Source: an uncultured Gemmatimonadales bacterium
GTDB lineage: Bacteria > Gemmatimonadota > Gemmatimonadetes > Gemmatimonadales > GWC2-71-9
DNA: 64,000 nucleotides
Reading direction: 5' to 3'
Assembly: GCA_963724265.1 (NCBI GenBank)
Contig: CAVRTU010000004.1
Span: forward strand, 133,263 to 197,262
Numbering within the stretch: the stretch's first letter is position 1; each line of letters starts with the position of its first letter. Below the pieces are notes generated by a model. That model ran no database searches. It was not told where the DNA came from and was given only the letters and a program-made list of their open reading frames with translations. Both the position numbers and the translations under genes were made by a program. This document shows, one piece after another, positions 12,881 to 27,459 of the stretch.

Positions 12881-13786
12881 TCAGTCCGCCTCCCCCGACG
12901 ATGCCCTGCCGCCCAGGTATGACCCCCGCTCCAGGTCCTCGATAATCCCGAGCCGGTGGGGCTTCCAGCCCAACAGGTCCCTGGCCCTCTTGCCCGATGC
13001 CTGCTGATCGAGCACCAGGGCGTCTGCATAAGGCCCAAGGGTCTTCCGGGCCTCCTCGAGGGGCCAGGGCTCCGTCTTGCCCCCGGCGCCGGCACCACGG
13101 CTGGCCGCCTCGGCCACCTGGGCGACCCTGTGGGACCTGCCGGTGACCGCCAGCAGCAGGGTGCCGGGAGGAGCCTTCTCAAGCGCGAGGAGGTAGAGAT
13201 CGGCAAGGTCATCCACGTGGACGAAGGGCCAGCGATTCCCGCCCATGCCGACATACTGGGCGGCGCCCTTCTCCTGTGCCGACTGGACGAAGCCGGCCAG
13301 GATCCCGGCCCCACGGCCGTACACGATGGCCGGCCGGATCACAATCGCGCGGACACCTCGCTTCGCTGCCGCCAGTACCCGATCCTCCACGGCCACACGC
13401 CACCGCACCAGCTCCACCGGATCAGGAGGAGAGGTCTCATCCACCACCGTGTCGCCGGTGTTGCCATGAGACCAGATCCCACTGGTATAAATGAAAGGTT
13501 TGTTGCTCCCGGCGAGCGCCTCGAGGATGGCATCGATGGCGGGGCCATCGATGGCAGGGTCGTAGGTGGTGGCCAGGTTGATGACGCCATCGGCGGCCCG
13601 GGCGGCTGCGCCGACGCCGGCGGGGTTCGAAAGGTCGCCGGGGACCGATGTGATGCCGGCCGCGGTCGCCTTGGCAGCCGAGGCGTCGCTCCTGACCAGG
13701 CCACTGAGCGAGTGGCCCGCGGCCCGCAGCCGCTCGGCAACCACGGAGCCGATGTAGCCCGTAGCGCCGGTGATGAAAACGTGCAT
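12881..13786 (-). CDS. NAD(P)-binding SDR/NmrA-like epimerase-dehydratase family protein
   Basis: MHVFITGATGYIGSVVAERL (Rossmann GxxGxxG) at ATG 13786. The upstream part of ORF 12881..14044 is repeat or intergenic sequence. Confidence 0.82.
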   Translation of the reverse strand: MHVFITGATGYIGSVVAERLRAAGHSLSGLVRSDASAAKATAAGITSVPGDLSNPAGVGAAARAADGVINLATTYDPAIDGPAIDAILEALAGSNKPFIYTSGIWSHGNTGDTVVDETSPPDPVELVRWRVAVEDRVLAAAKRGVRAIVIRPAIVYGRGAGILAGFVQSAQEKGAAQYVGMGGNRWPFVHVDDLADLYLLALEKAPPGTLLLAVTGRSHRVAQVAEAASRGAGAGGKTEPWPLEEARKTLGPYADALVLDQQASGKRARDLLGWKPHRLGIIEDLERGSYLGGRASSGEAD

Positions 13787-13822
13787 GGGAGAGGCTCCGG
13801 GTGATGGGGAGGGCAATCTAAT

Positions 13823-13885
13823 GGAGGGCCAGAGGGGCAGACCCCAAAGGGCTTCCTCGCGCCTTTGGCGCTCGGTCGGGGGCAG
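13823..13885 (+). repeat. Intergenic repeat family 1, copy C
   Basis: GGAGGGCCAGAGGGGCAGACCCCAAAGGGCTTCCTCGCGCCTTTGGCGCTCGGTCGGGGGCAG. Confidence 0.8.
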
Positions 13886-13895
13886 TCTTGCACGC

Positions 13896-14648
13896 ATGGA
13901 CATCGAGCGGCAGCTTAGTCCGGTGAAGCACACTCCCCTGGATCGCCTTGCCTGGCTGGCAGTGATGTGGCCCCTGACGCTCCGGAGCCAGGCAGCGCCG
14001 GTCCACCCGCCCGACGGGCGTCTCCTTCCCCTCCAGAGCGACACGTTTGCGATCTACTACGTCTGGGACGCCGACACCGTCCGGACAGGCACCGTAGTCG
14101 ATGTTCTCCGCTCCGAAGGCGACCGCCTGATCCGGGTCTTCGACCAGGCCGACCATGCGCTGGGGCCCGAGTTCGATTCGGTGATCTCCCGGGTGGAAGA
14201 CCTCGCGCCCGTCGCCTACCACGGGGCCTCGGACGCCCGGACCGCCCATCTCCAGTTCGGCGCGTCGAGCATCACCGGCTGGCTGCGTAGGGAAAATGGG
14301 GACTCGGTGTCCCTCGACCTCACCCGCCCCGTGGTCGTCTACGATGGATTCAGTTACGACCTTGTCGTGCGGGCCAGCGCGCTCAAGGACGGGTACCGAT
14401 TGACGGTTCCTGTATTCGTGCTCGGGCCCAACAGCATCGTCCCCGTCACCGGCGAAGTCACCGGCAGCGAACTGGTGAACGGCCACGACTGCTGGGTCTT
14501 CGCCGCCGACTTCGCCGGCATGCCGGTGACCTTCTGGATCGACAAGAAGACCCGAGCCTTGCGGCGGCAGTTCCTGCGGCTTCGCAAGAATGGCGGCGCC
14601 CTGTTCGTCACCCCAGCCGAACCCCGCGAGGTCGGACATCCCGCCTGA
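13896..14648 (+). CDS. Hypothetical exported protein
   Basis: ATG 13896 within ORF 13770..14648. The composition is protein-like, and I recognise no motif. Confidence 0.5.
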   Translation: MDIERQLSPVKHTPLDRLAWLAVMWPLTLRSQAAPVHPPDGRLLPLQSDTFAIYYVWDADTVRTGTVVDVLRSEGDRLIRVFDQADHALGPEFDSVISRVEDLAPVAYHGASDARTAHLQFGASSITGWLRRENGDSVSLDLTRPVVVYDGFSYDLVVRASALKDGYRLTVPVFVLGPNSIVPVTGEVTGSELVNGHDCWVFAADFAGMPVTFWIDKKTRALRRQFLRLRKNGGALFVTPAEPREVGHPA

Positions 14649-14734
14649 GGGCATCGATGAATATTGATCATTCGGGGCCCCTCCCTGCGCATGAGAGAAG
14701 AGTAAAGGAAGAGTGAAGGCGACTTCAGGACATT

Positions 14735-14774
14735 ATTGCGCAATCTTCTTACATTCGTACGTAATCTTACGTAC
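14735..14774 (+). promoter_or_regulatory. Two palindromes in the AT-rich region upstream of the multihaem cytochrome gene (candidate operators)
   Basis: ATTGCGCAAT at 14735-14744 and GTACGTAA-TC-TTACGTAC at 14757-14774, 29-68 nt upstream of ATG 14803. This is the most AT-rich stretch I noticed in the window. Confidence 0.4.
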
Positions 14775-14802
14775 CCTAAATCCCTCAACAGGTGGGTTAC
14801 AT

Positions 14803-16485
14803 ATGGTTGCCAATTGGGTTCGGCGTCACTCCGGATTCCTGGCCTTGGCCTTGGCCTTGGGCTTCGGACTCGGCGCGTGTACCACCACCGACACCGTGTA
14901 TGTCGACAAGCCCACCTACAACCCGCCACCGGACTCATTGGGCGGCTTCCTCGGCTACTACACGGCGAGCGAGAAGCTGACGACCTGCGGAAACTGCCAT
15001 GTGGGCCAGCAGCTGGACTGGGTCCAGACCCTCCATGCCAGCGCCTGGGACACGCTCGTGGCCAACCCCGGGCACCAGCCGTTCTGCGAAACCTGCCACA
15101 GCGTCGACTCGCGGGGCAACCAGGCTTTTGCCAATGTGGGCTACGACTCGGTCAAGAGCGAGGCCTATCACGATGTGCAGTGCGAAAGCTGCCATGGCCC
15201 GGGCCTCAACCACGTAAAGAACCCCTCGGTGTCCGCCAACCGGCCGATCCCGAGCGCGCTGACCTATCCGAATGTGACCACCGACGCAACCGTTTTGACC
15301 GCGGCTGATACCGCCGCGGTGGTCAACTCGAGTTGCGGGGGCTGCCACCAGGGCGCCGGCCCGTCGCAGAACCACAATTACCTGAAGGAGTGGCTCTCGT
15401 CCCGGCATGGCCAGCTGCGGGCCTCCCAGGCCGCCAACGCCAGCTGCCAGCCCTGCCACGAGGGAAAGGGAGCCCTGGCCGCCTGGGGCGTGAATACACT
15501 CTACAAGGAGCTCGGTACCTCTACCCTGCTGCCCCAGAACTGCGTGGTCTGCCACGACCCGCACGGCAGCGCCAAGGACGCCAACGGGCAGCCGCTCGAG
15601 GGCCAGCTCCGGTTCCCGATTGATGCGCCGACCCCGGAAGTGAACCTCTGCACTCATTGCCACAACCGGCGCTCCGAGGCCACGACCACCGGGAGCTCCC
15701 CGCACGGCGCTCAGGGCGGCGTGCTGTTCGGCACCGCGGGCTATTTCCCGCCGGGGACCGTTTATGACACGACCGCCATTCTCTCGACCCACGGCTCGAG
15801 CGCCAATCCGCGGCTCTGCGCCGGCTGCCACGTGAATTCGCAGACCGGGGTGGACGCCTTCGGCAATTCGATCTCATTCACCGGCCACACCTTCCACCCG
15901 ATCCCCTGCGTGACGCAGAAGAACCCAACGCTGGTGGATACGACCTACACCAATGCGTGCGCCTACGACGAGCCCAGCCGGTCCTGGGCCGCCTGCACGG
16001 CTTCGGGCTGTCACGGGACGGAGGCGGTGGCCGCATCTCGGCTGAATCTGATCCGGGACGAGGTCAGGAACTACGTCCGGGTCCTCTGGATCGACGCCAA
16101 TGGCAACAAGGCGGTGGATGCCTTCCCCACCGACTCGGGCTACCTGGCCAAGGTCCAGCTGAACGCCCCAACCGAGCTGCTCAACTCTACCAATATCCTC
16201 ACCTCCGCCAAGGGCGCCCGGTTCAACGCCCAGCTGACGGCCGACAGCCTGGCCGATCACCCGGACGGCTCGCACGGGGTGCACAACCCATTCCTGTACC
16301 GGACTCTGCTGCAGTCGTCGATCGCGGACATGCTGGCGACCTACCCGACCTTCCTTCCGGCTCCGCCCGCGCCGGTGCTGTCGCAGATCCAGGCCGCGAT
16401 CCGGAGCGGCCAGCTGAAGGTGGCGCCACGGACCGAGCGCGCGGTGATGGCGCCGCTCTCGTTGCAGGTTGCCGGAACGCGGTAG
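14803..16485 (+). CDS. Multihaem cytochrome c lipoprotein (8 CxxCH plus one CxxxxCH)
   Basis: Lipobox LGFGLGAC. Haem motifs CGNCH, CETCH, CESCH, CGGCH, CQPCH, CVVCH, CTHCH, CAGCH and CTASGCH. Confidence 0.9.
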   Translation: MVANWVRRHSGFLALALALGFGLGACTTTDTVYVDKPTYNPPPDSLGGFLGYYTASEKLTTCGNCHVGQQLDWVQTLHASAWDTLVANPGHQPFCETCHSVDSRGNQAFANVGYDSVKSEAYHDVQCESCHGPGLNHVKNPSVSANRPIPSALTYPNVTTDATVLTAADTAAVVNSSCGGCHQGAGPSQNHNYLKEWLSSRHGQLRASQAANASCQPCHEGKGALAAWGVNTLYKELGTSTLLPQNCVVCHDPHGSAKDANGQPLEGQLRFPIDAPTPEVNLCTHCHNRRSEATTTGSSPHGAQGGVLFGTAGYFPPGTVYDTTAILSTHGSSANPRLCAGCHVNSQTGVDAFGNSISFTGHTFHPIPCVTQKNPTLVDTTYTNACAYDEPSRSWAACTASGCHGTEAVAASRLNLIRDEVRNYVRVLWIDANGNKAVDAFPTDSGYLAKVQLNAPTELLNSTNILTSAKGARFNAQLTADSLADHPDGSHGVHNPFLYRTLLQSSIADMLATYPTFLPAPPAPVLSQIQAAIRSGQLKVAPRTERAVMAPLSLQVAGTR

Positions 16486-16835: not shown

Positions 16836-17765
16836 CTACGCCGGCCCGATCCTGGGGATCGCCGGCGCTTCGCCGCCACCCTCGCGCGGCACCAGCCCAC
16901 CTCCCCCCGTCATCCCCAGCAGGGAGGGGACGTTGAGCGAGTCGGCCAGGCCCGAGGGCACCACCATGAGCGAGCCCCGCTTGACGATGCTCTCGTACAG
17001 CATGTTCATCGCCCGCAGATTCATGGCCGCCGGGTGGTTGCGGTAGGCGTCCGCCGCCTCCACGAACTTGTGGGCGATCTCGGTCTCCGCCGTGCCCAGG
17101 ATGATGCGCGCCTGCCGCTCCCGCTCGGCCTGGGCCTGGCGGGACATGGCATCCTCCAGCGCGGCCGGAATGATCACGTCGCGAATCTCCACCGACTGCA
17201 CGTGGATCCCCCAGTTCGCCATCTTCCGCTCCAGCGCATCCTTGAGCCCCTGGCCCAGCTCCACCCGCGACTGGATCAGCTCCGCCAGATCGTGCTTGCC
17301 GATGGCGTCCCGCAGCGCGGTCTGGGCCGACAGGATCACCGCCTCGTCGTAGTCCTGCACCTCCAGCGCCGCCCGCTCGGCGTCGCGCACCACCCAGAAC
17401 GCGATGGCGTCGACGTTGACCGGCACCGTGTCGCGGGTCAGGCACGATTCGGCCCCGAACGCCGCGGTCCGGATCCGCTGATCGATGGTGTAGGCCACCC
17501 GGTCGAAGATCGGCAGGATGGCGAAGTACCCCGGGCCCCGCAGGCCCCGGTAGCGGCCCAGCCGCAGTACCACCGCCTTCTCCCACTGGTCGGTGAACTT
17601 GATCGAGGCGGCGAGCAGCACGCCCAGCGCCAGCCCCGCCACGCCGGCCAGCGGCGGGGCGATGCCCGCGAGGAACAGTCCGCCGGCCAGCCCGGCCGCG
17701 CCGAGCAGGCCCGCGGCGAGGGCGGCGAACGAATACCGGGTGTCGTTTGGCCTATTCGTGGTCAT
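16836..17765 (-). CDS. SPFH/Band-7 (stomatin-like) membrane protein, copy 1
   Basis: 309-aa ORF with N-terminal hydrophobic hairpin, then WEKAVVLRLGRYRGLRGPGYFAILPIFDRV...RDTVPVNVDAIAFWVV...QAQAERERQARIILG. Confidence 0.9.
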   Translation of the reverse strand: MTTNRPNDTRYSFAALAAGLLGAAGLAGGLFLAGIAPPLAGVAGLALGVLLAASIKFTDQWEKAVVLRLGRYRGLRGPGYFAILPIFDRVAYTIDQRIRTAAFGAESCLTRDTVPVNVDAIAFWVVRDAERAALEVQDYDEAVILSAQTALRDAIGKHDLAELIQSRVELGQGLKDALERKMANWGIHVQSVEIRDVIIPAALEDAMSRQAQAERERQARIILGTAETEIAHKFVEAADAYRNHPAAMNLRAMNMLYESIVKRGSLMVVPSGLADSLNVPSLLGMTGGGGLVPREGGGEAPAIPRIGPA

Positions 17766-17800
17766 GGCAATAACCTCGTGAAAGAAGAGTCAGCCGGCGT
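16915..17800 (-). repeat. Near-identical ~0.89-kb duplicate, copy A (SPFH gene body plus upstream spacer)
   Basis: Base-by-base comparison with 20218..21103 shows long identical runs and only scattered, mostly silent differences. Confidence 0.9.
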
Positions 17801-17815
17801 CAACCGGCGGTCGCT

Positions 17816-19093
17816 TCACCGTTTCCGGACGGGCCGCAGCTCCTGGTAGCGCGGCCGCACGGCCCGCGCCGGGGGCGGCGGGGCCAGGTAGGGACTCCGC
17901 ACATGCCCCAGCTCGATCGGCAGCGCCACCCGCACCAGGACCGTCAGCACGAACAGTCCCAGCGCCCAGATCCCCGCCATCAGGCAGAGCTCGACCCAGG
18001 TCGGGGTGTACTCGACGATCTCGCCCAGGGGCGAGGGAATGAAGCCTGGAATCACCAGCCCGATCCCCTTCTCGACCCAGATGGCGACGAAGAGCGTGGC
18101 GCAGGCCGGCATCAGGAAGCGCGGATTGTGGCGCACCGGGTGGATCATGAGTGAAAGCGTGGCCACGATGTTGAGGGCGACCGCGGTCCTGATCCAGGGG
18201 ACCAGGGCGTGATACTCGCCGAGGCCGAAGAAGAGGTACTTCGCGCTGGTGCTGTGATGCGTGGGGAAGTAGAACTCGAAGACCAGGTCGGAAAACAGCA
18301 TGACCAGGTTGACCTGCGCCGCCACCGTGGTGGCGGTGGCCAGCTTCGACATGGCCACATCCGAGATGGGGTACTTGCTGGTCGACCGGATGAACCCGAG
18401 CAACAGGATCATGAACGCCGGCCCGGCCGTGAAGGCCGAGGCCAGGAACCGGGGCCCGAGGAGCGGTGAGTTCCACAGGGGTCGGGAGGGCGGGGCCGCG
18501 AAGAGAAACGCGGTGATCAGGTGAATGCTGACCGCCCAGATGACCGAGAGATAGATGAACGGGACGTATTTCTTCTTCTCGGGCTCACGCCCGGTATAGT
18601 GGCTGTAAAGAATGTAGAACGGGATGGCCAGATTCAGCACCAGGTAGCCGTTCAGCGCGATCACGTCCCACGCCAGCATCGAGCTGGGCCAGTTGAGCAG
18701 TCCGATCACCGGCGTGAGGCGCCACCACTTCCAGGGATATCCCGGGCTGTTGGCCATCACGAACCCGAGACACATGACCAGGGCGGACACCGCCACCCCT
18801 TCGGCGATGAGGACGGCCCGGCTGAAGTCCACGTCATGCAGGACATAGGCCGGCATCACCAGGATCACCGCAGCGGCCGCCACGCCCACCAGGAAGGCCA
18901 TGTTGGAGATGTACAGCCCCCAGCTCACGTGATCGTTCATCCCCGTGACGACGAGTCCGTGATTGGCCTGGTAGATGTACGCATAGCCCCCGACCAGCAT
19001 GATCACCGACAGGCTTCCCATCCAGAGATGGTACCGCCGGTCGCCGGAGGTCGCCGCGCGCAGCGCGGTTGCAAAGAAGGCCCGGAGATGCAT
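17816..19093 (-). CDS. NrfD/PsrC-family polytopic quinone-interacting membrane subunit, copy 1
   Basis: ORF 17816..19108. The start is set to ATG 19093 (MHLRAFF), 7 nt after the upstream stop, as in the paralog (MHLKPFL). The protein is hydrophobic and multi-pass throughout. Confidence 0.85.
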   Translation of the reverse strand: MHLRAFFATALRAATSGDRRYHLWMGSLSVIMLVGGYAYIYQANHGLVVTGMNDHVSWGLYISNMAFLVGVAAAAVILVMPAYVLHDVDFSRAVLIAEGVAVSALVMCLGFVMANSPGYPWKWWRLTPVIGLLNWPSSMLAWDVIALNGYLVLNLAIPFYILYSHYTGREPEKKKYVPFIYLSVIWAVSIHLITAFLFAAPPSRPLWNSPLLGPRFLASAFTAGPAFMILLLGFIRSTSKYPISDVAMSKLATATTVAAQVNLVMLFSDLVFEFYFPTHHSTSAKYLFFGLGEYHALVPWIRTAVALNIVATLSLMIHPVRHNPRFLMPACATLFVAIWVEKGIGLVIPGFIPSPLGEIVEYTPTWVELCLMAGIWALGLFVLTVLVRVALPIELGHVRSPYLAPPPPARAVRPRYQELRPVRKR

Positions 19094-19100
19094 GATCGCC

Positions 19101-20078
19101 TCAGTCAATGAAGTACCAGAAGCGAGGCTCGGTCCCCAGCTCTTCCTTCAGGCGGAAGACCTGCTTGTTGGCCAGCACCCAGCGGATCTCGGAGTCGGGA
19201 TCCAGCAGGTTGCCGAAGACCCGCGCTCCGGTGGGGCAGGCCTCGGCGCAGGCCGGCAGCCGGCCCACCCGAGTCCGGTGGACGCAGAAGGTGCACTTCT
19301 CGACGCAGCCCTGTTTGCGGGCACGGTTGCCCAGGTAGTGCTGGTTGGGATTGACTTCTTCGTTAGGCACTTCGGGCACGTCCCAGTTGAAGCGCCGGGC
19401 CCAGTAGGGGCAGGCGGCCATGCAGGCGCGACATCCGACGCACCAGTTGTAATCGATGACCACGATGCCATCGGGCTCCTGCCAGGTGGCGCCCACCGGG
19501 CAGACCGGAACGCAAGGCGGGTTGGCGCACTGGAAGCACTGGGTCCCGAGATACGAGTACCCATCCGCCGGCACATCGTGCTGGTAGGTCGCATCAGCGT
19601 CGCTGATATTGAGGGCGTCGTTTCCCTTCTCGAAGATCCGGATGTACTGGGTATCCGCCTTGCGGTCCAGGTTGTTCTCGTTGATGCAGGCCTCGACGCA
19701 GCGCCGGAAGCCCTTGCACCTGGTGATGTTGAAGGCGTACCCGAAGAGCACGCCCGGCACGGCATCGTTGGTGTGGATGGTGACGTCCTGGTCATGCAGC
19801 AGCTTGGCGAGGCGTTCGAGCCGCTGGACGGTCTCGGCACGCTCCTCCGCGGTCATGCGGCGATAGTGCTTCTGGGTGAACTGCTCCCATTGGAGAATCT
19901 TGAGCTCGCGCTCCTCGGGTGTGGCGGCGTTGAGGGGTGAACAGGCGCTCACCGCGGCCGCGCCGGCGGCCAGCCCACCGAGCAGGAGGCCCACCGCCTC
20001 CCGCCGATCGACCCGCTTCTGCAGCACGGTGCCTTCGTCGACGGTCGCGGACATCTCGGTATCTGGATGTGTGCTCAT
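19101..20078 (-). CDS. NrfC/DmsB-type iron-sulfur subunit with Tat signal and lipobox, copy 1
   Basis: VDRREAVGLLLGGLAAGAAAVSAC (RR plus lipobox). Cluster motifs CKGFRRCVEAC (three Cys), CFQCANPPCVPVCP, CVGCRACMAACP and CTFC...CAEACP. Confidence 0.9.
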   Translation of the reverse strand: MSTHPDTEMSATVDEGTVLQKRVDRREAVGLLLGGLAAGAAAVSACSPLNAATPEERELKILQWEQFTQKHYRRMTAEERAETVQRLERLAKLLHDQDVTIHTNDAVPGVLFGYAFNITRCKGFRRCVEACINENNLDRKADTQYIRIFEKGNDALNISDADATYQHDVPADGYSYLGTQCFQCANPPCVPVCPVGATWQEPDGIVVIDYNWCVGCRACMAACPYWARRFNWDVPEVPNEEVNPNQHYLGNRARKQGCVEKCTFCVHRTRVGRLPACAEACPTGARVFGNLLDPDSEIRWVLANKQVFRLKEELGTEPRFWYFID

Positions 20079-20084
20079 GTTAGG

Positions 20085-21068
20085 CTACGGGGCCTTCGGC
20101 CCCGCCTTCGCCACGTCGGGCCCGGCCCCCTTCGCCGGTCCGGCTACTTCGCCGCCGGTCGTCAGGGACACCCGGTGCTCGCCTTCGCTCGGCACCAGTC
20201 CGGCGCCGCCCATCAGGCCCAGCAGCGAGGGGACGTTGAGCGAGTCGGCCAGGCCCGAGGGCACCACCATGAGCGAGCCCCGCTTGACGATGCTCTCGTA
20301 CAGCATGTTCATCGCCCGCAGATTCATGGCCGCCGGGTGGTTGCGGTAGGCGTCCGCCGCCTCCACGAACTTGTGGGCGATCTCGGTCTCCGCCGTGCCC
20401 AGGATGATGCGCGCCTGCCGCTCCCGCTCGGCCTGGGCCTGGCGGGACATGGCATCCTCCAGCGCGGCCGGAATGATCACGTCGCGAATCTCCACCGACT
20501 GCACGTGGATCCCCCAGTTCGCCATCTTCCGCTCCAGCGCATCCTTGAGCCCCTGGCCCAGCTCCACCCGCGACTGGATCAGCTCCGCCAGATCGTGCTT
20601 GCCGATGGCGTCCCGCAGCGCGGTCTGGGCCGACAGGATCACCGCCTCGTCGTAGTCCTGCACCTCCAGCGCCGCCCGCTCGGCGTCGCGCACCACCCAG
20701 AACGCGATGGCGTCGACGTTGACCGGCACCGTGTCGCGGGTCAGGCACGATTCGGCCCCGAACGCCGCGGTCCGGATCCGCTGATCGATGGTGTAGGCCA
20801 CCCGGTCGAAGATCGGCAGGATGGCGAAGTACCCGGGCCCCCGCAGCCCCCGGTAGCGGCCCAGCCGCAGCACCACCGCCTTCTCCCACTGGTCGGTGAA
20901 CTTGATCGAGGCGGCGAGCAGCACGCCCAGCGCCAGGCCCGCGCCAGCGGCCAGCGGGGGGGCGATGCCCGCGAGGAACAGTCCGCCGGCCAGCCCGGCC
21001 GCGCCGAGCAGGCCCGCGGCGAGGGCGGCGAACGAATACCGGGTGTCGTTTGGCCTATTGGTGGTCAT
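20085..21068 (-). CDS. SPFH/Band-7 (stomatin-like) membrane protein, copy 2
   Basis: 327-aa ORF identical to copy 1 over about 290 residues except near PPLAAGAGL. The C-terminal tail is different. Confidence 0.9.
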   Translation of the reverse strand: MTTNRPNDTRYSFAALAAGLLGAAGLAGGLFLAGIAPPLAAGAGLALGVLLAASIKFTDQWEKAVVLRLGRYRGLRGPGYFAILPIFDRVAYTIDQRIRTAAFGAESCLTRDTVPVNVDAIAFWVVRDAERAALEVQDYDEAVILSAQTALRDAIGKHDLAELIQSRVELGQGLKDALERKMANWGIHVQSVEIRDVIIPAALEDAMSRQAQAERERQARIILGTAETEIAHKFVEAADAYRNHPAAMNLRAMNMLYESIVKRGSLMVVPSGLADSLNVPSLLGLMGGAGLVPSEGEHRVSLTTGGEVAGPAKGAGPDVAKAGPKAP

Positions 21069-21103
21069 GGCAATAACCTCGTGGAAGTAGAGTCAGCCGG
21101 CGT
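20218..21103 (-). repeat. Near-identical ~0.89-kb duplicate, copy B
   Basis: See 16915..17800; the offset is 3303 nt. Confidence 0.9.
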
Positions 21104-21118
21104 CAACCGGCAGTCGTT

Positions 21119-22393
21119 TCACCGTCGCCGGACGGGCCGCAGCTCCTGGTACCGCGGCCGGACCGCCCGCGCGACGGGCGGGGCGGCCAGATAGGGGCTC
21201 CGCGCCTGGCCCAGCTCAATCGGCAGCGCGACCCGCACCAGGACCGTCAGCACGAACAGCCCAAGGGACCAGATCCCCGCCGTGACGCCCAGTTCGACCC
21301 AGGTCGGGGTGTACTCGACGATCTCGCCCAGGGGCGAGGGAATGAAGCCGGGGATCACCAGCCCGATCCCTTTTTCGATCCAGATGCCCACGAAAAGTGT
21401 GGCGCAGGCCGGGATCAGCCACCGGGGGTTGTGCCGCAGCGGATGGATCATGAGTACGACGGTCGCGGTGACATTCAGCCCGATCCCGGTCCAGATCCAG
21501 GGCACCAGCGCGCGATGCTCGCCGAGGCCAAAGAAGAGATATCGCGCGTTGATGCCGTGATGGGTGGGCGAGTAGAACTCGTAGAACAGCTCGGAGATGA
21601 GCATGACCAGGTTGATCTGCGCCGCGGCCACAACGACCAGCGCGAGCTTCGAGAATGCGCCATCCGAAATGGCGTACTCCGTCGTCCGCCGGATGAAGTA
21701 CAACAGCACCAGCACGAAGGCCGGCCCCGCGGTGAAGGCCGAGGCCAGGAACCGGGGCCCCAGGAGCGCCGTGTTCCAGAACGGCCGGGACGGCAGCCCC
21801 GCCAGGAGGAACGCCGTCACCAGGTGAATGCTCACGGCCCACATGGCGGAGATGTACATCCAGGGGAGGTACTTGTTCTTGGCCGGCGAGCGCCCGGTGT
21901 AGTGGCTGTAGAGGATGTAGAACGGGATGGCCAGATTCAGCGCCAGGTAGCCGTTCAGCACGATCACGTCCCAGGACAGGAGCGACCGTGGCCAATTCAG
22001 GTAGCCGATGCCGGGCACGAGGTGCCACCCGGCGAAGGGGTTGCCGATGTCCACCACCACGAACCCGAGGGCCATGACCAGTGCCGCCACGGCGACGCCC
22101 TCCGCCATCAGCACCGCACTCCCGAAGTCGACGTCGTGCAGGATGTACGCCGGCAGGACCAGCATCATGGCAGCCGCGGCCATCCCGACCAGGAAGGTGA
22201 AGTTCGAGATGTACAGCCCCCAGCTCACCTGATCGCTCATTCCCGTAACGCCGAGTCCGTAGCGCAGCTGGAGGGAATAGGCATACGCCCCAACGAGGAT
22301 GATCGCCGTCAGACTCCCCATCCAGAGGTGGTAGCGCCGGCCTCCGGAGGTGGCCGAGTCCAGGGCAGTCAGCAGGAATGGCTTCAGGTGCAC
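21119..22393 (-). CDS. NrfD/PsrC-family membrane subunit, copy 2
   Basis: 424-aa ORF colinear with 17816..19093. The protein is clearly diverged, and the DNA is diverged except at the 3' end. Confidence 0.87.
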   Translation of the reverse strand: MHLKPFLLTALDSATSGGRRYHLWMGSLTAIILVGAYAYSLQLRYGLGVTGMSDQVSWGLYISNFTFLVGMAAAAMMLVLPAYILHDVDFGSAVLMAEGVAVAALVMALGFVVVDIGNPFAGWHLVPGIGYLNWPRSLLSWDVIVLNGYLALNLAIPFYILYSHYTGRSPAKNKYLPWMYISAMWAVSIHLVTAFLLAGLPSRPFWNTALLGPRFLASAFTAGPAFVLVLLYFIRRTTEYAISDGAFSKLALVVVAAAQINLVMLISELFYEFYSPTHHGINARYLFFGLGEHRALVPWIWTGIGLNVTATVVLMIHPLRHNPRWLIPACATLFVGIWIEKGIGLVIPGFIPSPLGEIVEYTPTWVELGVTAGIWSLGLFVLTVLVRVALPIELGQARSPYLAAPPVARAVRPRYQELRPVRRR

Positions 22394-22400
22394 GGTCGCC

Positions 22401-23375
22401 TCAGTCGGTGAAGTACCAGAAACGAGGCTCCGTCTTCAGGTCTTCCTTCAGCCGGAAGATGCGCTTGTTGGCCAGCACCCAGCGGATCTCGGAGTCGGGA
22501 TCCAGCAGGTTGCCGAAGACCCGCGCCCCCGTCGGACACGCCTCGACGCAGGCCGGCAGCCGGCCCTGCCGGCTGCGATGGATGCAGAAGGTGCACTTCT
22601 CGACCACGCCCTTCTTGCGCGCGCGGTTGCCCAGGTAGTGCTGGTTGGGGTTCACTTCCTCCCGGGGGACCTCCGGCTGGCTCCAGTTGAAGCGCCGGGC
22701 CCAGTAGGGGCAGGCGGCCATGCAGTAGCGGCACCCGATGCACCAGTCGTAGTCGATGACCGTGATGCCGTCCGGTTCCTGCCAGGTGGCCCCCACCGGG
22801 CAGACCTTGACGCAGGGCGGCTCGGCGCACTGGAAGCACTGGGTCCCGAGATAGAAATGGCCTTCCGCCGGCACCTCGTGCTGGAAGGTCGCGTCGGCTT
22901 CGTCCAGGTCGACGACGCCATTCTCCATCTCGAAGATCCGGATGTACTGGGTGGCGGCCTGGCGATCGAGGTTGTTCTCGTTGATGCAGGCCTCGACGCA
23001 GCGCCGGAAGCCCTTGCACTTCGAGATGTTGAAGGCGTAGCCGAACTGCACTCCGGGCTGCGCGCCGGTGGACTGGATGGTCACGTCCAGGCCTCGCTGC
23101 AGCTGGGCCAGACGCTCGAGACGGGCGATCGTCGCCGCCCGCTCGTCCTCGGTCATGAAGCGGTAGTCGCCCTTGATGTACTCCCGCCAGGCCAGAAGCT
23201 TGATTTCACGCTCCTCGTCCGACTCGGCGCTGAGCGGGGCGCAGGCGCCCAGCGCCTGGCTTCCGAGGATAGCGCCCCCCACCAGCATGCCCAGCGCGCC
23301 CCGGCGGTCGACCGGCTTCTGCAGCAGGGAGCGACCCTCCGCGCCCTCCGGCGGCTCCGCGGCGGAGTCACTCAT
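22401..23375 (-). CDS. NrfC/DmsB-type iron-sulfur subunit with Tat signal and lipobox, copy 2
   Basis: ATG 23375 (MSDSAAEPPEG) overlaps the upstream stop (ATGA). VDRRGALGMLVGGAILGSQALGAC. Same four cluster motifs, including CKGFRRCVEAC. Confidence 0.88.
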   Translation of the reverse strand: MSDSAAEPPEGAEGRSLLQKPVDRRGALGMLVGGAILGSQALGACAPLSAESDEEREIKLLAWREYIKGDYRFMTEDERAATIARLERLAQLQRGLDVTIQSTGAQPGVQFGYAFNISKCKGFRRCVEACINENNLDRQAATQYIRIFEMENGVVDLDEADATFQHEVPAEGHFYLGTQCFQCAEPPCVKVCPVGATWQEPDGITVIDYDWCIGCRYCMAACPYWARRFNWSQPEVPREEVNPNQHYLGNRARKKGVVEKCTFCIHRSRQGRLPACVEACPTGARVFGNLLDPDSEIRWVLANKRIFRLKEDLKTEPRFWYFTD

Positions 23376-24097
23376 GGGATCTGGCTCCGGGTGCGCTCGA
23401 TCTGCGGCGCGCGGAACGGGATGCGCTGCTGGACGGTGGGGTTGTGCGGATCGTGACAGTCCGGGCAGGCCATGACCACGCGCTGCCCCTGCCAGCCATC
23501 CAGCCGCTTGCCGTGTCCGCCGCCGGCCCATGCCTTCGCCTGCTCGAAGTGGCATTGCGCGCAGAGTCGGTAGCTCTCGTCCAGCGGAGCGCGCTCGCCG
23601 CTCTTGAGTGTCAGGAACGCGACATCGTCCGGCAAATGGCAGGTAGAACAGACGGCGCCGGTCTGCTCCGGGTGCACCGGCTGGATGTTCTGGTGCGCGT
23701 CACTGATGCGCTTGTTCTCCATGACCACCTTCCGCCCCTGATGACACGATGTGCAGGGATACTGATTGATGGACGCGGCACGGCTGCGCAGCGCGATGGG
23801 CAGCGTGATCGACCCGAACTGGCGGGCGTGTCCTGCCTCCGGAGCCGCACTCCGCCGGGCAACCTCGAACGGCTTGCCCCCCGGACCCGTCCACCCCTTG
23901 ACCGGAATCGCCTGCACGGTCCCCAGCATGCCCGGCTCGAGGGTCGCGTTGCGGGCCGCGGTCGCGGAGTCGACCGCCGCCACCACGGTGCCCGGCGGAG
24001 GCAACTCAGGCAACGCCTTGCGACTTTCGCGACAGCCGGTGACCAGGCCGGCAGCCGCGACGCAGCAAGCCGCAAGACCCATCCGCATTCGGCTCAT
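23372..24097 (-). CDS. Tetrahaem cytochrome c lipoprotein
   Basis: Lipobox GLVTGC. Haem motifs CTSCH, CSTCH, CAQCH and CPDCH. ATGA overlaps at both ends. Confidence 0.88.
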   Translation of the reverse strand: MSRMRMGLAACCVAAAGLVTGCRESRKALPELPPPGTVVAAVDSATAARNATLEPGMLGTVQAIPVKGWTGPGGKPFEVARRSAAPEAGHARQFGSITLPIALRSRAASINQYPCTSCHQGRKVVMENKRISDAHQNIQPVHPEQTGAVCSTCHLPDDVAFLTLKSGERAPLDESYRLCAQCHFEQAKAWAGGGHGKRLDGWQGQRVVMACPDCHDPHNPTVQQRIPFRAPQIERTRSQIP

Positions 24098-24912
24098 GGC
24101 GCCCCTCCAGATCCGGCCCCGCCGTCAAGCGGGGGTCGTGTGAACGCCCCTGCCTCCGGATCAGGGGCGACGTGACATTGACGGCAGTTGGGCCACGGTG
24201 GGTGTTCCATCCGGATTTCGGCCACGGCGGAGGGACCCGAGTGACAGACCATGCAGTTCTCCCGGAACTGCAGATCGTGGGGAATCGGGGGGGGGTCACG
24301 ATCGGGCGTCGTCGCCGTCAGCACCGGCCAGACCGACGTCGACCAGGTCAGGCTGGCGTCGGCCCGGGGGCGGCCGCCGCTCGGACCATGGCACTGGGGG
24401 CACCTGGCCTTCGGATTGTCAATGGGAACGGCGATTCCCATCAGCGAGTCCTCGCCCGCGTGGCACTGCAGGCAGATGCCCCGCTCGGGGTGCGGGGTCA
24501 CCGGCACGTAGGCGGCAAAGCGCTCGGAGTAGCCGCCGCGCTGGTGACAGGTCCGGCAGCTGGCGGTCTGGAACTCTTCGGGGCCAAGGGCATGCGGGAT
24601 GCGCGGCGGTGCACCCGGAAAGGCCCGGAGGAAACGGTAGGTCTTGAAATCCCGCCGGTGGGCCCGGCGCTCCCGCGGGGCCGCGGGATCGATCGCCAGC
24701 ATGCCGGGGGTGGTGCGAAAGACCTGCGCCTCGGCGCGGATCGGATCGCCGGGGGTCGCCAGCAGCGGTACGGCAACGGGAACGGACTCGGGCGGCTTGG
24801 CGGCAGGAATGCGTCGCACCGCGGTCCTCACCGCCACGACCGCCGTGACCGCGGAGGCGATCAGAAAGAGGCGCAGTACCAGTCCGCCCAGCCGCGAATC
24901 GCTGGAGCTCAC
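24094..24912 (-). CDS. Membrane-anchored pentahaem cytochrome c made of two NapB-like dihaem modules plus one extra haem
   Basis: N-terminal TM LGGLVLRLFLIASAVTAVVAV. Module 1: APPRIPH...CRTCH...CLQCH. Extra haem: CPQCH. Module 2: DPPPIPH...CMVCH...CRQCH. GTG 24912 overlaps the upstream stop. Confidence 0.85.
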   Translation of the reverse strand: MSSSDSRLGGLVLRLFLIASAVTAVVAVRTAVRRIPAAKPPESVPVAVPLLATPGDPIRAEAQVFRTTPGMLAIDPAAPRERRAHRRDFKTYRFLRAFPGAPPRIPHALGPEEFQTASCRTCHQRGGYSERFAAYVPVTPHPERGICLQCHAGEDSLMGIAVPIDNPKARCPQCHGPSGGRPRADASLTWSTSVWPVLTATTPDRDPPPIPHDLQFRENCMVCHSGPSAVAEIRMEHPPWPNCRQCHVAPDPEAGAFTRPPLDGGAGSGGAP

Positions 24913-27254
24913 GAGCCGCTCCCGGTGGCCAGGCGCTCGAGGCGCACCACGCAGCTGGCGGCATCGGGCTGGCCCGAGAGCGGACAGCAGGCGTCGAGGG
25001 TCAGACGGTTCACCGGTCGCGTCTCGTCAAACCATGGGGCGAAGAGCTGGCCGCGCGGAGGCTGGGACCGGTAGTTGATGCGGGCCTGCATCTCGACGGA
25101 GCCGCGCCGACTCACCAGGCGCACGGTATCGTGATTCCGGATCCCGAGGTCGCGCGCGTCGTCGGGGTTGATTTCGACGTAGGCATGCGGCAAGGCGTGA
25201 TGTAGCGTCGGAATGCGCTGCGTCATCGAGCCCGCCCCCCATTGCTCGAGCACGGCACCGGTCATGAGCCACGAGGGATAGGCGCGATCTGGCGACTCCG
25301 CGGGCGGCTGGTAGGGCCGCAGCCAGATCCACGCCCGGTGGTCCGCGTGTCCGTAGAAGTCGAACTCGCCATGAGCGCGGTCGGCCGCCGGGTCCTGGCT
25401 GGTGTTGTAGCGCCACCGGGTCTCGCGGCCCTTGACGTAGGGCCACATCACCCCGGACTCCGCACGAAGCGCGGAAAGCGGCGGGAGCGCACTCGACGGA
25501 TCGGCGTGAAAGCGGCTGTACTCCGTCCAGAGCTGCTCGACGTGCCGCGAGGCCTCGTAGGGGAAGAGATCCTTGAAGCCGAGACGCCGCGCGACCTCGA
25601 TCAACTGCCAGGCGTCGCCGGTCGCATCGCCGGGCGGCGCGACCAGGCGCTGGAAGTACTGCGCGCGCCGCTCGACATTGGCGTAGATGCCCTCGCGCTC
25701 CAGCCACATCGCGGCCGGGAGAACGACGTCAGCCACGTCCGTGGTGGGGGTGGGATACGCCTCCGACACGACGATGAAGCGGTCGCCCTTGCCAGCCGCG
25801 CGCCGATAGCGGTCCAGATTGGGCAGGCTGACCATGGGGTCGGTCGCCATGATCCAGAGGAACTGGATATCCCCGCTCTCCAGCCGGCGGAACATCGAGA
25901 GGGCGGGCCCGGTCGGAGTGGGATCGATGCGTTCCACCGGCACGCCCCAGATCTCGGCGGCGCGGCGGCGGTCCGGTTCATTCTGCACCACCCCGCCCGG
26001 GAGGGTCCCGGTCAAGGTGCCGGCGTCGTGCACCGCGCATCCTCCGCTGGGCTGCCCCGTGGTGGCAAAGGGACTGTTCCCCGGCGACGCGACCTTGCCG
26101 ACCAGCAGATGGATGTTGTAGAGGGCGTTGTTCAGCCAGGTGCCGCGCACGTCCTGGTTCACTTCCCGGCCCCAGACCGACATCACCTTCCGCTGGGGAT
26201 CACCATAGATCGATGCCAGCCAGCGGATGCTGGCCGCCGGCAGGCCGGAGAGCTCCTGGGCGCGCTCCGGGGTGTAGTCCGCAAGAAACTTCACGTAGTC
26301 GCCCCAGGTGGCGTCTGTGGCCGCCTCCTCGACCAGGGCGCCATCGGTCAGCCCGTAGCCGATGTCCGTCTTGCCCCGCTTGAACGCCACGTGGTCCTTC
26401 ACGAATTCGGTGTGTACCCATTTGCGGGCCACGATTTCGGAGCAGATGGCGTTGGCGATCGCCAGTGAGGCGTGGGGGGTGTGCAGCAGGGAATGGTCGG
26501 CCGCGTAGCTGGTCCGAGTGGTGCGGGTGGACACGTCGATGATGCGGACCGCGGGGTTGATGCGCTTCCGATCCAGCATCCGGGAGAAGAGCACCGGATC
26601 GGTCTCGGCCAGGTTGACGTCCCACAGCACGAGGATGTCGGCATGATCGACGTCCTCGTAGCAGCCGATTGCCCCGTCGAGGCCGAAGCTGCCCTGGAGG
26701 CCAGCCATCGCACTGGCGCCGAACAGGCGGGTGCTGCTCTCAACGTTGTTGGTGCCCAGGGCGCCCTTGAAGAGCTTGGACGCGGCGTAGGCATCAGTGA
26801 TTGACCACTGGGCCGAGCCATACAGGGCCACGCTGTCCTTGCCGTGCTGCTTGGCCGTCTCGCGGAGCTTCTGCGCCACCAGGTCGAGAGCCTCGCCGAG
26901 GGGCACCTCCACCAGCGTGCCATTGCGACGCACCTTGGCGCGCCGGATCCGGTCCTGCCCGGAGAGCGCCTGCACCGAGTTGTACCCCTTCACGCAGGCC
27001 AGCCCCCCGCCGACCGGGGAGTCGGGATCGCCCTTGACGGCGACCGGGCGGCCCTCGGCGACCCGCACCAGCAGGCCGCAACCGACGCCGCACAGGCGGC
27101 AGGGCGTCTTGTGCCAGTCGGGTCCTGGTTGGCTCCCGGGCGCCTCCGTGGCGCCCAGGGGGAAGACCATCCCCGGGACCACCACGGATGCGGCCGTGGC
27201 CGCCGAAACGGCGGCCACGTTCCTGAAAAACGTCCTCCGATCGACCGGGTTCAC
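24909..27254 (-). CDS. Periplasmic NapA-like molybdopterin oxidoreductase catalytic subunit (Tat signal, N-terminal 4Fe-4S motif)
   Basis: GGAGG then GTG at 27254. VDRRTFFRNVAAVSAATAAS twin-arginine signal. CRLCGVGCG...C(VKGY) cluster motif. Colinear with NapA as I remember it along the whole length (SAQWSITDAYAASKLFKG, TGQPS, PYPTPT, LPAAMWLEREG, RLTLD). The ORF opens at 27356. Confidence 0.88.
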   Translation of the reverse strand: MNPVDRRTFFRNVAAVSAATAASVVVPGMVFPLGATEAPGSQPGPDWHKTPCRLCGVGCGLLVRVAEGRPVAVKGDPDSPVGGGLACVKGYNSVQALSGQDRIRRAKVRRNGTLVEVPLGEALDLVAQKLRETAKQHGKDSVALYGSAQWSITDAYAASKLFKGALGTNNVESSTRLFGASAMAGLQGSFGLDGAIGCYEDVDHADILVLWDVNLAETDPVLFSRMLDRKRINPAVRIIDVSTRTTRTSYAADHSLLHTPHASLAIANAICSEIVARKWVHTEFVKDHVAFKRGKTDIGYGLTDGALVEEAATDATWGDYVKFLADYTPERAQELSGLPAASIRWLASIYGDPQRKVMSVWGREVNQDVRGTWLNNALYNIHLLVGKVASPGNSPFATTGQPSGGCAVHDAGTLTGTLPGGVVQNEPDRRRAAEIWGVPVERIDPTPTGPALSMFRRLESGDIQFLWIMATDPMVSLPNLDRYRRAAGKGDRFIVVSEAYPTPTTDVADVVLPAAMWLEREGIYANVERRAQYFQRLVAPPGDATGDAWQLIEVARRLGFKDLFPYEASRHVEQLWTEYSRFHADPSSALPPLSALRAESGVMWPYVKGRETRWRYNTSQDPAADRAHGEFDFYGHADHRAWIWLRPYQPPAESPDRAYPSWLMTGAVLEQWGAGSMTQRIPTLHHALPHAYVEINPDDARDLGIRNHDTVRLVSRRGSVEMQARINYRSQPPRGQLFAPWFDETRPVNRLTLDACCPLSGQPDAASCVVRLERLATGSGS

Positions 27255-27459
27255 GTGCACCTCCGGCGACGAGAGCAGCGGCGGGTATTCGCGGCCGCAA
27301 TGAACCGCATGGGACCAACAGAACGTCCGGCCTCGGTACAGAGCCAGAAAAAGCACGGCCCCCGGACCAGGCGCATTGAGTCACGCTGAGGTGAGGCAGC
27401 CTGCGGACTTAAGAGTGGCAGAGGCGGGCTAAAGGATTGGGGAACGATGGATGAAGGCT

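Follow-up and report, generated by a model that had tools for sequence, protein, structure and literature searches.

What becomes of a molybdoenzyme when the residue that ligates its metal is lost? This question is raised by a gene in a stretch of 64,000 nucleotides (contig CAVRTU010000004.1, positions 133,263 to 197,262) from an uncultured Gemmatimonadales bacterium, hereafter referred to as the window. The gene encodes a protein, here called A', that is colinear with NapA, the catalytic subunit of periplasmic nitrate reductase, and carries Phe at the position of the Mo-ligating Cys. Our comparative analyses indicate that A' belongs to a distinct clade lacking this Cys, which is very probably not a nitrate reductase, and they suggest that A' is a NapA-derived pseudo-molybdoenzyme without the molybdenum-bis(pyranopterin guanine dinucleotide) (Mo-bisPGD) cofactor. 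The explanation that we prefer, as a probable one, is that the cofactor, or at least catalysis, has been lost and that A' serves as a scaffold, or as a subunit carrying only the [4Fe-4S] cluster FS0, in a quinol:cytochrome c complex resembling alternative complex III (ACIII) or Qrc.

The gene and the parts of it that bear most directly on the question are as follows.
24909..27254, minus strand: NapA-derived subunit A', 781 amino acids (aa), MopB (Mo-bisPGD) fold without the Mo-ligating Cys
26721-26723, minus strand: codon TTC of Phe178, at the position of the Mo ligand Cys179 of Escherichia coli NapA
27156..27254, minus strand: twin-arginine (Tat) signal peptide of A', sequence VNPVDRRTFFRNVAAVSAATAAS...
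26994..27101, minus strand: FS0 [4Fe-4S] motif C52-x2-C55-x3-C59-x27-C87, fully retained

The open reading frame (ORF) extends upstream to 27356, and the full ORF (24909-27356) encodes 815 aa; the GTG at 27254 is the start of the 781-aa protein, and the database protein P0001 is identical over these 781 residues. The Phe encoded at 26721-26723 is residue 212 of the 815-aa ORF and residue 178 of the 781-aa protein. The preliminary description of this locus had placed it at the Mo-ligand position, and both alignment methods agree on this. HMMER matched A' to solved NapA structures with E values down to 6e-189 and a score of 633 bits to 3ml1, and set 'nnvesstrlFgasam' opposite 'nnidpnarhCmasa' in the alignments to 3ml1, 2nya and 1ogy, and MAFFT placed F178 on Cys179 (precursor numbering) of E. 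coli K-12 NapA, whose sequence was taken from NC_000913.3 and whose residue numbers are used below as they stand in this alignment. The three further differences described earlier, WGREVNQDVRG versus wtmgfnqhtrg, TGQPSGGCAVHDAG versus tgqpsacgtarevg and EQWGAGSMTQR versus ehwhtgsmtrr, recur in the same alignments. A misalignment concealing a nearby Cys, Ser or Asp ligand was excluded by the agreement of the three HMMER alignments with MAFFT. The earlier statement that no Cys, Ser or Asp is nearby holds for the ligand position itself but not for its surroundings, as Ser occurs at -5, -4 and +3 (ESSTRLFGASAM). The Ser at +3 is that of the canonical C-M-A-S; canonical NapA has Asn at -4 and no Ser at -5 relative to the ligand Cys, and none of the three is known to ligate Mo there.

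A' keeps the MopB fold. It is colinear with the solved NapA proteins of E. coli (2nya), C. necator (3ml1), R. sphaeroides (1ogy) and D. desulfuricans (2nap) at 36-38% identity and shares with them the FS0 motif, the conserved Lys just downstream (Lys89, in CVKGY) and the Arg of NQxxRG, but it lacks the Mo-ligating Cys, and Met180, Gly213, His220, Arg418, Arg720, His724, His726 and Lys819 are replaced. The Pfam domains Molybdop_Fe4S4 (PF04879), Molybdopterin (PF00384) and Molydop_binding (PF01568) were all found above cut-off. The AlphaFold2 (AF2) model, whose result comprises fold and confidence only, has a predicted local distance difference test score of 89.6 and a NapA-like four-domain fold, with template modelling scores of 0.88-0.91 (about 0.90) to NapA structures. 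The Tat residues R6 and R7 are conserved at >= 90% across the alignment, and the ratio of non-synonymous to synonymous substitution rates (dN/dS, 0.12-0.26) places the gene under purifying selection. Together with an intact ORF in all loci, this ruled out a pseudogene.

The residue in the ligand column was then compared across the 120 closest proteins, 72-100% identical to A', from a collection of 5.8 billion proteins. The column holds Tyr (111), Phe (6), His (3) or Thr (1) and in no case Cys, so that Tyr is the usual residue of the clade and Phe a minority state. Phe was found in four independent assemblies (L001, which is the locus of the window, L002, L003 and L011); among species-representative genomes, L004, L005, L006, L008 and L013 carry Tyr and L010 carries His. 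All of the loci from L002 to L006, as well as L008, L010, L011 and L013, belong to metagenome-assembled genomes (MAGs) of Gemmatimonadales or Gemmatimonadaceae. More distant members of the clade, sampled at 50% clustering, have Gln (P0161) or Ala (P0163, P0123), and in P0135 the ligand loop is deleted; His arose at least twice. Met180, beside Cys179, is replaced by Ala or Gly. The ligand position, as read from these alignments, is thus unconstrained in the clade and drifts freely among Tyr, Phe, His, Thr, Gln, Ala and deletion. Tyr was considered as a new Mo ligand and is disfavoured, because a ligating Tyr would not tolerate Phe or Ala, and Phe, Ala, Thr, Gln and His all occur at this site with intact operons. 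Many of the 120 proteins are labelled 'nitrate reductase NapA' by the Joint Genome Institute (JGI), and some are assigned to Gemmatimonadales.

Other Nap/Nas/Fdh proteins without Cys or selenocysteine (Sec) in the ligand column were also noticed (P0260, P0228, P0270 and P0237), with the motifs RLYHSS (Fdh-like, with Tyr), RVSMGP, RLGMAS and SSRLSMAS among them. Loss of the ligand may therefore be recurrent within this superfamily.

In neighbour-joining trees with 200 bootstraps, the proteins lacking the ligand (the Cys-less clade), a clade of homologues that keep it (the Cys-type clade) and the union of both inside the NapA radiation were each recovered with a bootstrap of 1.0. Phe marks a terminal subclade nested among Tyr-bearing sequences, again with a bootstrap of 1.0. 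On this evidence the loss of Cys is clade-wide and has a single origin in Gemmatimonadales. It had been proposed beforehand to check whether homologues sharing the Phe form a clade with the same operon; the homologues lacking Cys, most of them with Tyr, do form one.

The Cys-type sister clade (about 770 aa) comprises proteins of Fulvivirga kasyanovii, Bryobacterales (Bryobacteraceae), Rhodothermales, Calditrichia and some Gemmatimonadetes. They are 55-57% identical to A' and resemble it in Tat signal, FS0 motif, gene order and partner subunits, and their A subunit is fully canonical (RLCMSSAV, LWGNNMAEMHP, CMGFNQHTRG, TGQPSACGTVREVG and TGRVVEHWHSGSMTRR); all of the 120 nearest homologues of the Bryobacteraceae protein carry Cys. 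The Cys-type operon of Fulvivirga (L018 3880-7997) adjoins a fusion of Cu-oxidase and cytochrome c (nirK-like), ScdA/hemerythrin and SCO1, and that of Bryobacteraceae (L009 8108-9936) adjoins an NrfA-like pentahaem gene and a 4-haem NrfH-like gene. In two lineages, Fulvivirga and one Gemmatimonadetes MAG, NapD lies directly upstream of the Cys-type napA. Because of these nitrite-reductase neighbours and the NapD genes, the Cys-type operons look like genuine nitrate reductases that use a quinol module of the NrfCD/DsrOP type. The term 'Nap' does not occur in the text of a review on NrfD-type complexes. In L009 (10001-12321), the Cys-type napA was split by frameshifts into three tblastn pieces; as the gene is intact in L007 of the same family, the split probably reflects faulty assembly and not decay of the gene.

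The loss of the ligand is accompanied by changes throughout the cofactor region. Measured against a baseline of 105 diverse Nap/Nas/Fdh representatives and 120 sister-clade sequences, 14 of the 97 superfamily-conserved positions are altered in the Cys-less clade, as follows (E. coli numbering).
Asn76 to Ser
Gly149 to Ala
Asn175 to Ser
Cys179 to Tyr
Gly213 to Asp
His220 to Asp
Asp264 to Ala, Glu or Gly
Gly373 to Glu, Asp or Asn
Gly415 to Ser or Cys
Arg418 to His
Asn482 to Asp
Arg720 to Ala, Pro or Val
His726 to Gly
Lys819 to Ser, Gly or Thr

Asp264 and Lys819 are putative cofactor contacts, judging from the Rossmann-like fold and from their conservation in the superfamily; a paper on C. jejuni NapA contains no list of protein hydrogen bonds to the guanosine parts of the cofactor. 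According to a review of NapA structures (2026), the patches 212-219 and 718-729 hydrogen-bond the pyranopterins, and the conserved pterin-contact residues are Gly213, Asn215, Glu218, Arg720, Val721, His724, Trp725 and His726 (PMC13223375). Four of these eight are changed in A' (G213D, R720A, H726G and H724Q, the last being a replacement in the A' lineage), and Asn215, Glu218, Val721 and Trp725 are kept. The segments concerned are located as follows.
26595..26624, minus strand: pterin patch 1, WDVNLAETDP, canonical WGxNMAEMHP; Gly213 to Asp and His220 to Asp, with Asn215 and Glu218 kept
25227..25262, minus strand: pterin patch 2, TGAVLEQWGAGS, canonical TGRVLEHWHTGS; Arg720 to Ala, His724 to Gln and His726 to Gly, with Val721 and Trp725 kept
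26019..26057, minus strand: GQPS loop, GQPSGGCAVHDAG, canonical GQPSACGTAREVG; Arg418 to His, Gly415 relaxed
26142..26159, minus strand: NQDVRG, canonical NQHTRG; Asn, Gln and Arg kept, His to Asp

Among the 105 representatives, Gly213 is conserved at 100% and His220 at 93%. The Asp at the former site (Asp212 in A' numbering) lies in the AF2 model at the end of beta-strand 207-211, just before helix 215-218, an arrangement suggestive of a Rossmann-type phosphate-binding turn, and the GQPS loop is the only internal stretch of low confidence in that model. Basic residues predominate among the cofactor contacts that were replaced, and several of the replacements are acidic, at places where an anionic cofactor binds. 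In total, 36 sites are conserved within both clades and yet differ between them, with a net charge change of -2.5.

These fixed replacements are joined by relaxation of constraint. The two clades are matched in internal divergence, with mean pairwise identities of 0.764 and 0.754. The Cys-less clade nevertheless varies at 45 sites where the Cys-type clade is invariant, versus 21 in the reverse direction. The sites relaxed in the Cys-less clade include the ligand loop, patch 1, the Asp of PGTD, the MG of CMGFNQ, the GQPS loop, patch 2 and the C-terminal YKK. The FS0 cysteines C52, C55, C59 and C87 are conserved at 100% and the Lys between FS0 and pterin at 99%. In Cys-type complexes, the A subunit (74-79% identity) is the best-conserved subunit, ahead of the iron-sulfur (FeS) protein (73-76%), whereas in Cys-less complexes A' (49-84%) is always below the FeS protein (78-89%) and usually below the NrfD-like protein. 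The deepest Cys-less branch consists of P0123 (L016) and P0135 (L017), both of about 660 aa with in-frame loop deletions: the GQPS..REVG loop and other loops are gone in both, and in P0135 the ligand loop itself is gone as well. Both keep the FS0 cysteines and the full operon.

The partners of A' are encoded directly downstream of its gene.
24094..24912, minus strand: cytB, membrane-anchored pentahaem cytochrome c with two NapB-like dihaem repeats and an extra CxxCH in the linker
23372..24097, minus strand: cytM, tetrahaem cytochrome c with 4 CxxCH and a lipoprotein-type signal (LVTGC), present in all loci
22401..23375, minus strand: FeS copy 1, Tat-exported four-cluster ferredoxin of the NrfC/DsrO/PsrB type with 16 Cys
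21119..22393, minus strand: NrfD-like integral membrane quinone/quinol subunit, copy 1 (PF03916)
20085..21068, minus strand: SPFH/Band 7 protein (HflK/C-like), copy 1 (PF01145)
16836..20054, minus strand: second tandem FeS-NrfD-SPFH module, with FeS at 19101-20054, NrfD-like at 17816-19093 and SPFH at 16836-17765 (start uncertain)

The order of A, two cytochromes, NrfC-like FeS protein and NrfD-like membrane protein was found in every Cys-less locus and is shared by Bryobacteraceae, F. kasyanovii and one Gemmatimonadetes MAG. The partner of NapB type in the A' operon is a repeat cytochrome with 5 haems whose likeness to NapB is weak (3ml1_B, E = 0.08; a faint PF03892 match on orthologues); cytB has 5 CxxCH in 11 of 11 Cys-less loci and 4 in the four Cys-type loci counted. 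The quinol module is of the NrfCD/DsrOP kind and not, as with the structurally characterised NapA proteins, NapC or NapGH. FeS copy 1 scored 197.5 bits against the NCBIfam model DsrO (cut-off 200) and 153 bits against QrcC, the second best, and its PDB matches were ArrB, PsrB and ACIII ActB. NrfD-like copy 1 reached 393.8 bits against DsrP (cut-off 350), followed by QrcD, and its sole PDB matches were the ActC subunits of ACIII. An SPFH gene follows NrfD in L001 (twice), L002 (twice), L003, L010 and L011, that is, in every Cys-less locus that is long enough, and the Cys-type loci, among which L009, L018 and L025 continue beyond NrfD, gave no match to it. Two tandem FeS-NrfD-SPFH modules are present in the window and in L002, against one in L003, L010 and L011; within the tandem copies (16836-23375), FeS and NrfD are 72-73% identical in amino acids to copy 1. 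Neither the 64-kb window nor any of the Cys-less loci gave a hit to a NapD profile.

Beyond the operon lie two genes on the opposite strand.
13770-14648, plus strand: DUF3108 protein, preceding the next gene
14713..16485, plus strand: 590-aa cytochrome c with 8 CxxCH (and one CxxxxCH), convergent with the operon, a candidate redox partner

Homologues of the 590-aa octahaem cytochrome (40-41% identity) adjoin the operon in L010 and L013; the protein has no informative PDB or NCBIfam family. Large cytochromes were encoded beside other Cys-less operons too: proteins with 32 and 23 haems in L005, with 16 and 23 haems in L008, and with 8, 18 and 16 haems together with a 493-aa porin-like protein in L010 and L013, and a 16-haem protein directly upstream in L017. 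The cytochromes of 16 to 32 haems in L005 and L008 lie upstream of the operon, and L008 has CcmE directly upstream as well. The cluster in L010 (3126-9792), also seen in L013, is divergent and ordered as 8-haem, 18-haem, 493-aa porin-like and 16-haem, a layout like that of a porin-cytochrome conduit. The gene context thus shifts from nirK-like/ScdA or NrfA genes beside Cys-type operons to cytochromes of 8 to 32 haems beside Cys-less ones. Judged from alignments, trees and neighbourhoods together, the Cys-less lineage has undergone ligand loss, a coordinated replacement and relaxation of the cofactor region, co-evolution of the partners and a shift of context.

To which known system does such a complex correspond? 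A' falls below the equivalog cut-offs of NapA itself (740.4 versus 904 bits for NF010055 and 723 versus 930.55 for TIGR01706) and far below those of arsenite oxidase (TIGR02693, 99.3 bits, cut-off 359) and QrcB (73 bits, cut-off 440). Membership among AioA, ArrA, Psr, DMSO reductase (DMSOR) or Nar was rejected, all of these family models being far below cut-off. Qrc (QrcABCD) of sulfate reducers resembles the A' operon in having a multihaem cytochrome, a MopB-like non-catalytic subunit, an FeS protein and an NrfD-like protein, and QrcB is a molybdopterin-binding-like subunit without cofactor; A', however, comes from a different lineage and a different group of organisms. ACIII (ActABCDEF) and the A' operon have in common a module of MopB fold, a four-cluster FeS protein, a membrane-anchored pentahaem cytochrome, a lipoprotein cytochrome and NrfD-like subunit(s), and the two NrfD-like subunits encoded in the window recall ActC and ActF. 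ActB lacks Mo/W-bisPGD (Wells et al. 2023, PMC10100899). Unlike ActB, of which it is no orthologue, A' is nested in NapA, is a polypeptide separate from the FeS protein and keeps FS0, and no homologues of ActD, ActE or ActF were identified; the likeness to ACIII is architectural (convergent) and not by descent. Like ActB1 and QrcB, A' has no protein ligand and degraded cofactor-binding residues, and its gene is accompanied by those for a multihaem cytochrome c, an FeS protein with four clusters and a membrane protein of NrfD type. By analogy, it may work as these subunits do without being one of them by descent, as it nests inside NapA.

A probable course of events is as follows. Comparison of the clades points to an ancestor that was a genuine quinol-dependent periplasmic nitrate reductase, composed of a Cys-bearing NapA, two tetrahaem cytochromes, one of them NapB-like, an FeS protein of the NrfC/DsrO kind and a membrane subunit of the NrfD/DsrP kind. 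Among Gemmatimonadales, the Cys that ligates Mo was then replaced, as were several residues holding the two pyranopterins, so that Mo-bisPGD is probably no longer bound or at least no longer catalytic. The complex would have been kept as a quinol:multihaem-cytochrome oxidoreductase, or as one working in reverse, in which A' carries FS0 and acts as scaffold and docking site, much as ActB1 does in ACIII, QrcB in Qrc, or NuoG with its N7 cluster. Menaquinol or quinone would be handled at the NrfD-like subunit. The four-cluster ferredoxin would relay electrons to the tetrahaem lipoprotein and the pentahaem NapB-like cytochrome, which would pass them on to, or receive them from, large multihaem cytochromes of the periplasm or the cell exterior whose genes lie nearby. 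The retention of the Tat signal, FS0, the fold and purifying selection fits such a scaffold or docking subunit.

The alternative that survives best, which we consider unlikely, is that Mo- or W-bisPGD is still present in A', with no ligand from the protein, as in AioA, and sits in a remodelled, more acidic pocket (Tyr/Phe178, Asp212, Asp219, Glu/Asp364, Asp368 and His409) that carries out a different reaction, a reduction or an oxidation, on a neutral or cationic substrate; the partner cytochromes, FeS protein and NrfD-like subunit would link it to the quinone pool for electron exchange. Retention in this clade is 99-100% for FS0, for the electron-transfer Lys and for the Arg of NQxxRG. The 83 of 97 conserved positions that are kept and the 36 conserved-but-different sites are consistent with a maintained pocket, and so are the strong purifying selection, the retained Tat signal and the confidently predicted NapA-like fold. 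On the other hand, pterin contacts are replaced, with Asp at Gly213 and His220, sites of the cofactor region are relaxed, the ligand position varies, active-site loops are deleted in some members, A' evolves faster than its partners, and the operon contains no NapD or other maturation chaperone. The analogy to arsenite oxidase, which the preliminary description had put forward, fares poorly in particular. AioA keeps its cofactor, a [3Fe-4S] cluster and a Rieske partner. A' resembles it in having none of Cys, Ser, Asp and Sec as a ligand at the corresponding site, but it differs in the four-Cys type of its FS0 motif, in its partners (cytochromes c, FeS and NrfD), in its degraded pterin contacts and in its low score against the arsenite oxidase model; no Rieske-type match was listed for the called operon genes, for which no dedicated Rieske search was run. 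The Asp residues in the pterin patches, the relaxed sites, the free drift of the ligand position and the loop-deleted relatives make loss of cofactor or catalysis likelier than a new oxidase. Of the earlier proposal of a functionally different clade, the distinctness of the clade (in score, ligand and context) is upheld, and an active, ligand-free site like that of AioA is argued against. If A' were, as seems doubtful, a new Mo/W-bisPGD (or other-metal) enzyme with no covalent protein ligand, an acidic Tyr-lined pocket and a reaction other than nitrate reduction, it would represent a new catalytic family, abundant in soil Gemmatimonadales, with nine haems and a membrane module of the ACIII type connecting it to the quinone pool.

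It is considerably less probable that the vacated acidic cavity (Asp212, Asp219, His409, Tyr/His178 and Glu364) binds another metal or cofactor and forms a new site, for catalysis or sensing, unrelated to molybdopterin. The residues fixed there are of kinds that typically ligate metals and are conserved at >= 92%, but Phe, Ala and Thr also occur at position 178, and position 364 shows relaxation (E 50, D 36, N 14). Salt bridges to basic residues left behind in an empty cofactor site would account for the new acidic residues equally well. Finally, the caution that TTC might be an error for TGC in an ordinary NapA, plausible at first sight as the codons differ by one base and the contig is seemingly a long-read assembly, was refuted by the same Phe in the independent assemblies L002, L003 and L011 besides the window, by the clade-wide absence of Cys (0 of 120 nearest homologues) and by more than a dozen other canonical residues changed coordinately.

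Several observations weigh against the loss of cofactor or catalysis that we prefer. The 83 superfamily-conserved positions that the Cys-less clade keeps are conserved at 98.5%, and the pocket is still constrained at NQxxRG (N 95%, Q 92%, R 99%); neither this motif nor the FS0-to-pterin Lys (99%) has an obvious purely structural role. Asp212, Asp219, His409, Gly673 and Tyr178 are each fixed at >= 92% rather than relaxed, and such fixed replacements could mark a remodelled functional pocket. NuoG of complex I is cofactor-less, and E. coli NuoG in the same alignment keeps Gly213, Arg720 and His726; these residues are therefore not clean markers of the presence of the cofactor. The NapD profile found none adjoining the Bryobacteraceae Cys-type operon either, so that NapD separates the two clades only in part. 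The link to multihaem cytochromes consists of gene neighbourhood only, and the large multihaem genes were not found in the available flanks of the three closest relatives (L002, L003 and L011). The trees, moreover, were built by neighbour-joining only.

If cofactor or catalysis has indeed been lost, A' appears to be a non-catalytic MopB subunit that arose independently and comparatively recently, in this case from NapA, and whose catalytic sister survives. The cofactor-less MopB subunits of ACIII, Qrc and complex I have an ancient origin that is hard to trace. Here, the catalytic enzyme and its putative non-catalytic descendant are sister clades with the same operon, and graded stages are present, from Tyr, through Phe, His or Ala, to loop deletions, so that the conversion of a reductase into an electron-transfer module would be directly testable in this pair of clades. 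No description of a Cys-less NapA lineage was found in the full-text literature, whose coverage was incomplete, and the NapA and MopB phylogenies found there are of cultured organisms.

In uncultured soil Gemmatimonadales, the complex may serve the large multihaem cytochromes as a quinol dehydrogenase, or a quinone reductase, of the inner membrane, and such a role would bear on extracellular electron transfer in soils. As Gemmatimonadota are abundant in soils and their Cys-less proteins carry 'nitrate reductase NapA' labels from JGI, counts of napA by homology in metagenomic inventories may overestimate nitrate-reducing potential. Elsewhere in the window, the plus-strand gene at 7759-10446, which appears unrelated to these findings, encodes an 895-aa fusion of a Ser/Thr protein kinase with PD40 (WD40-like beta-propeller) repeats.

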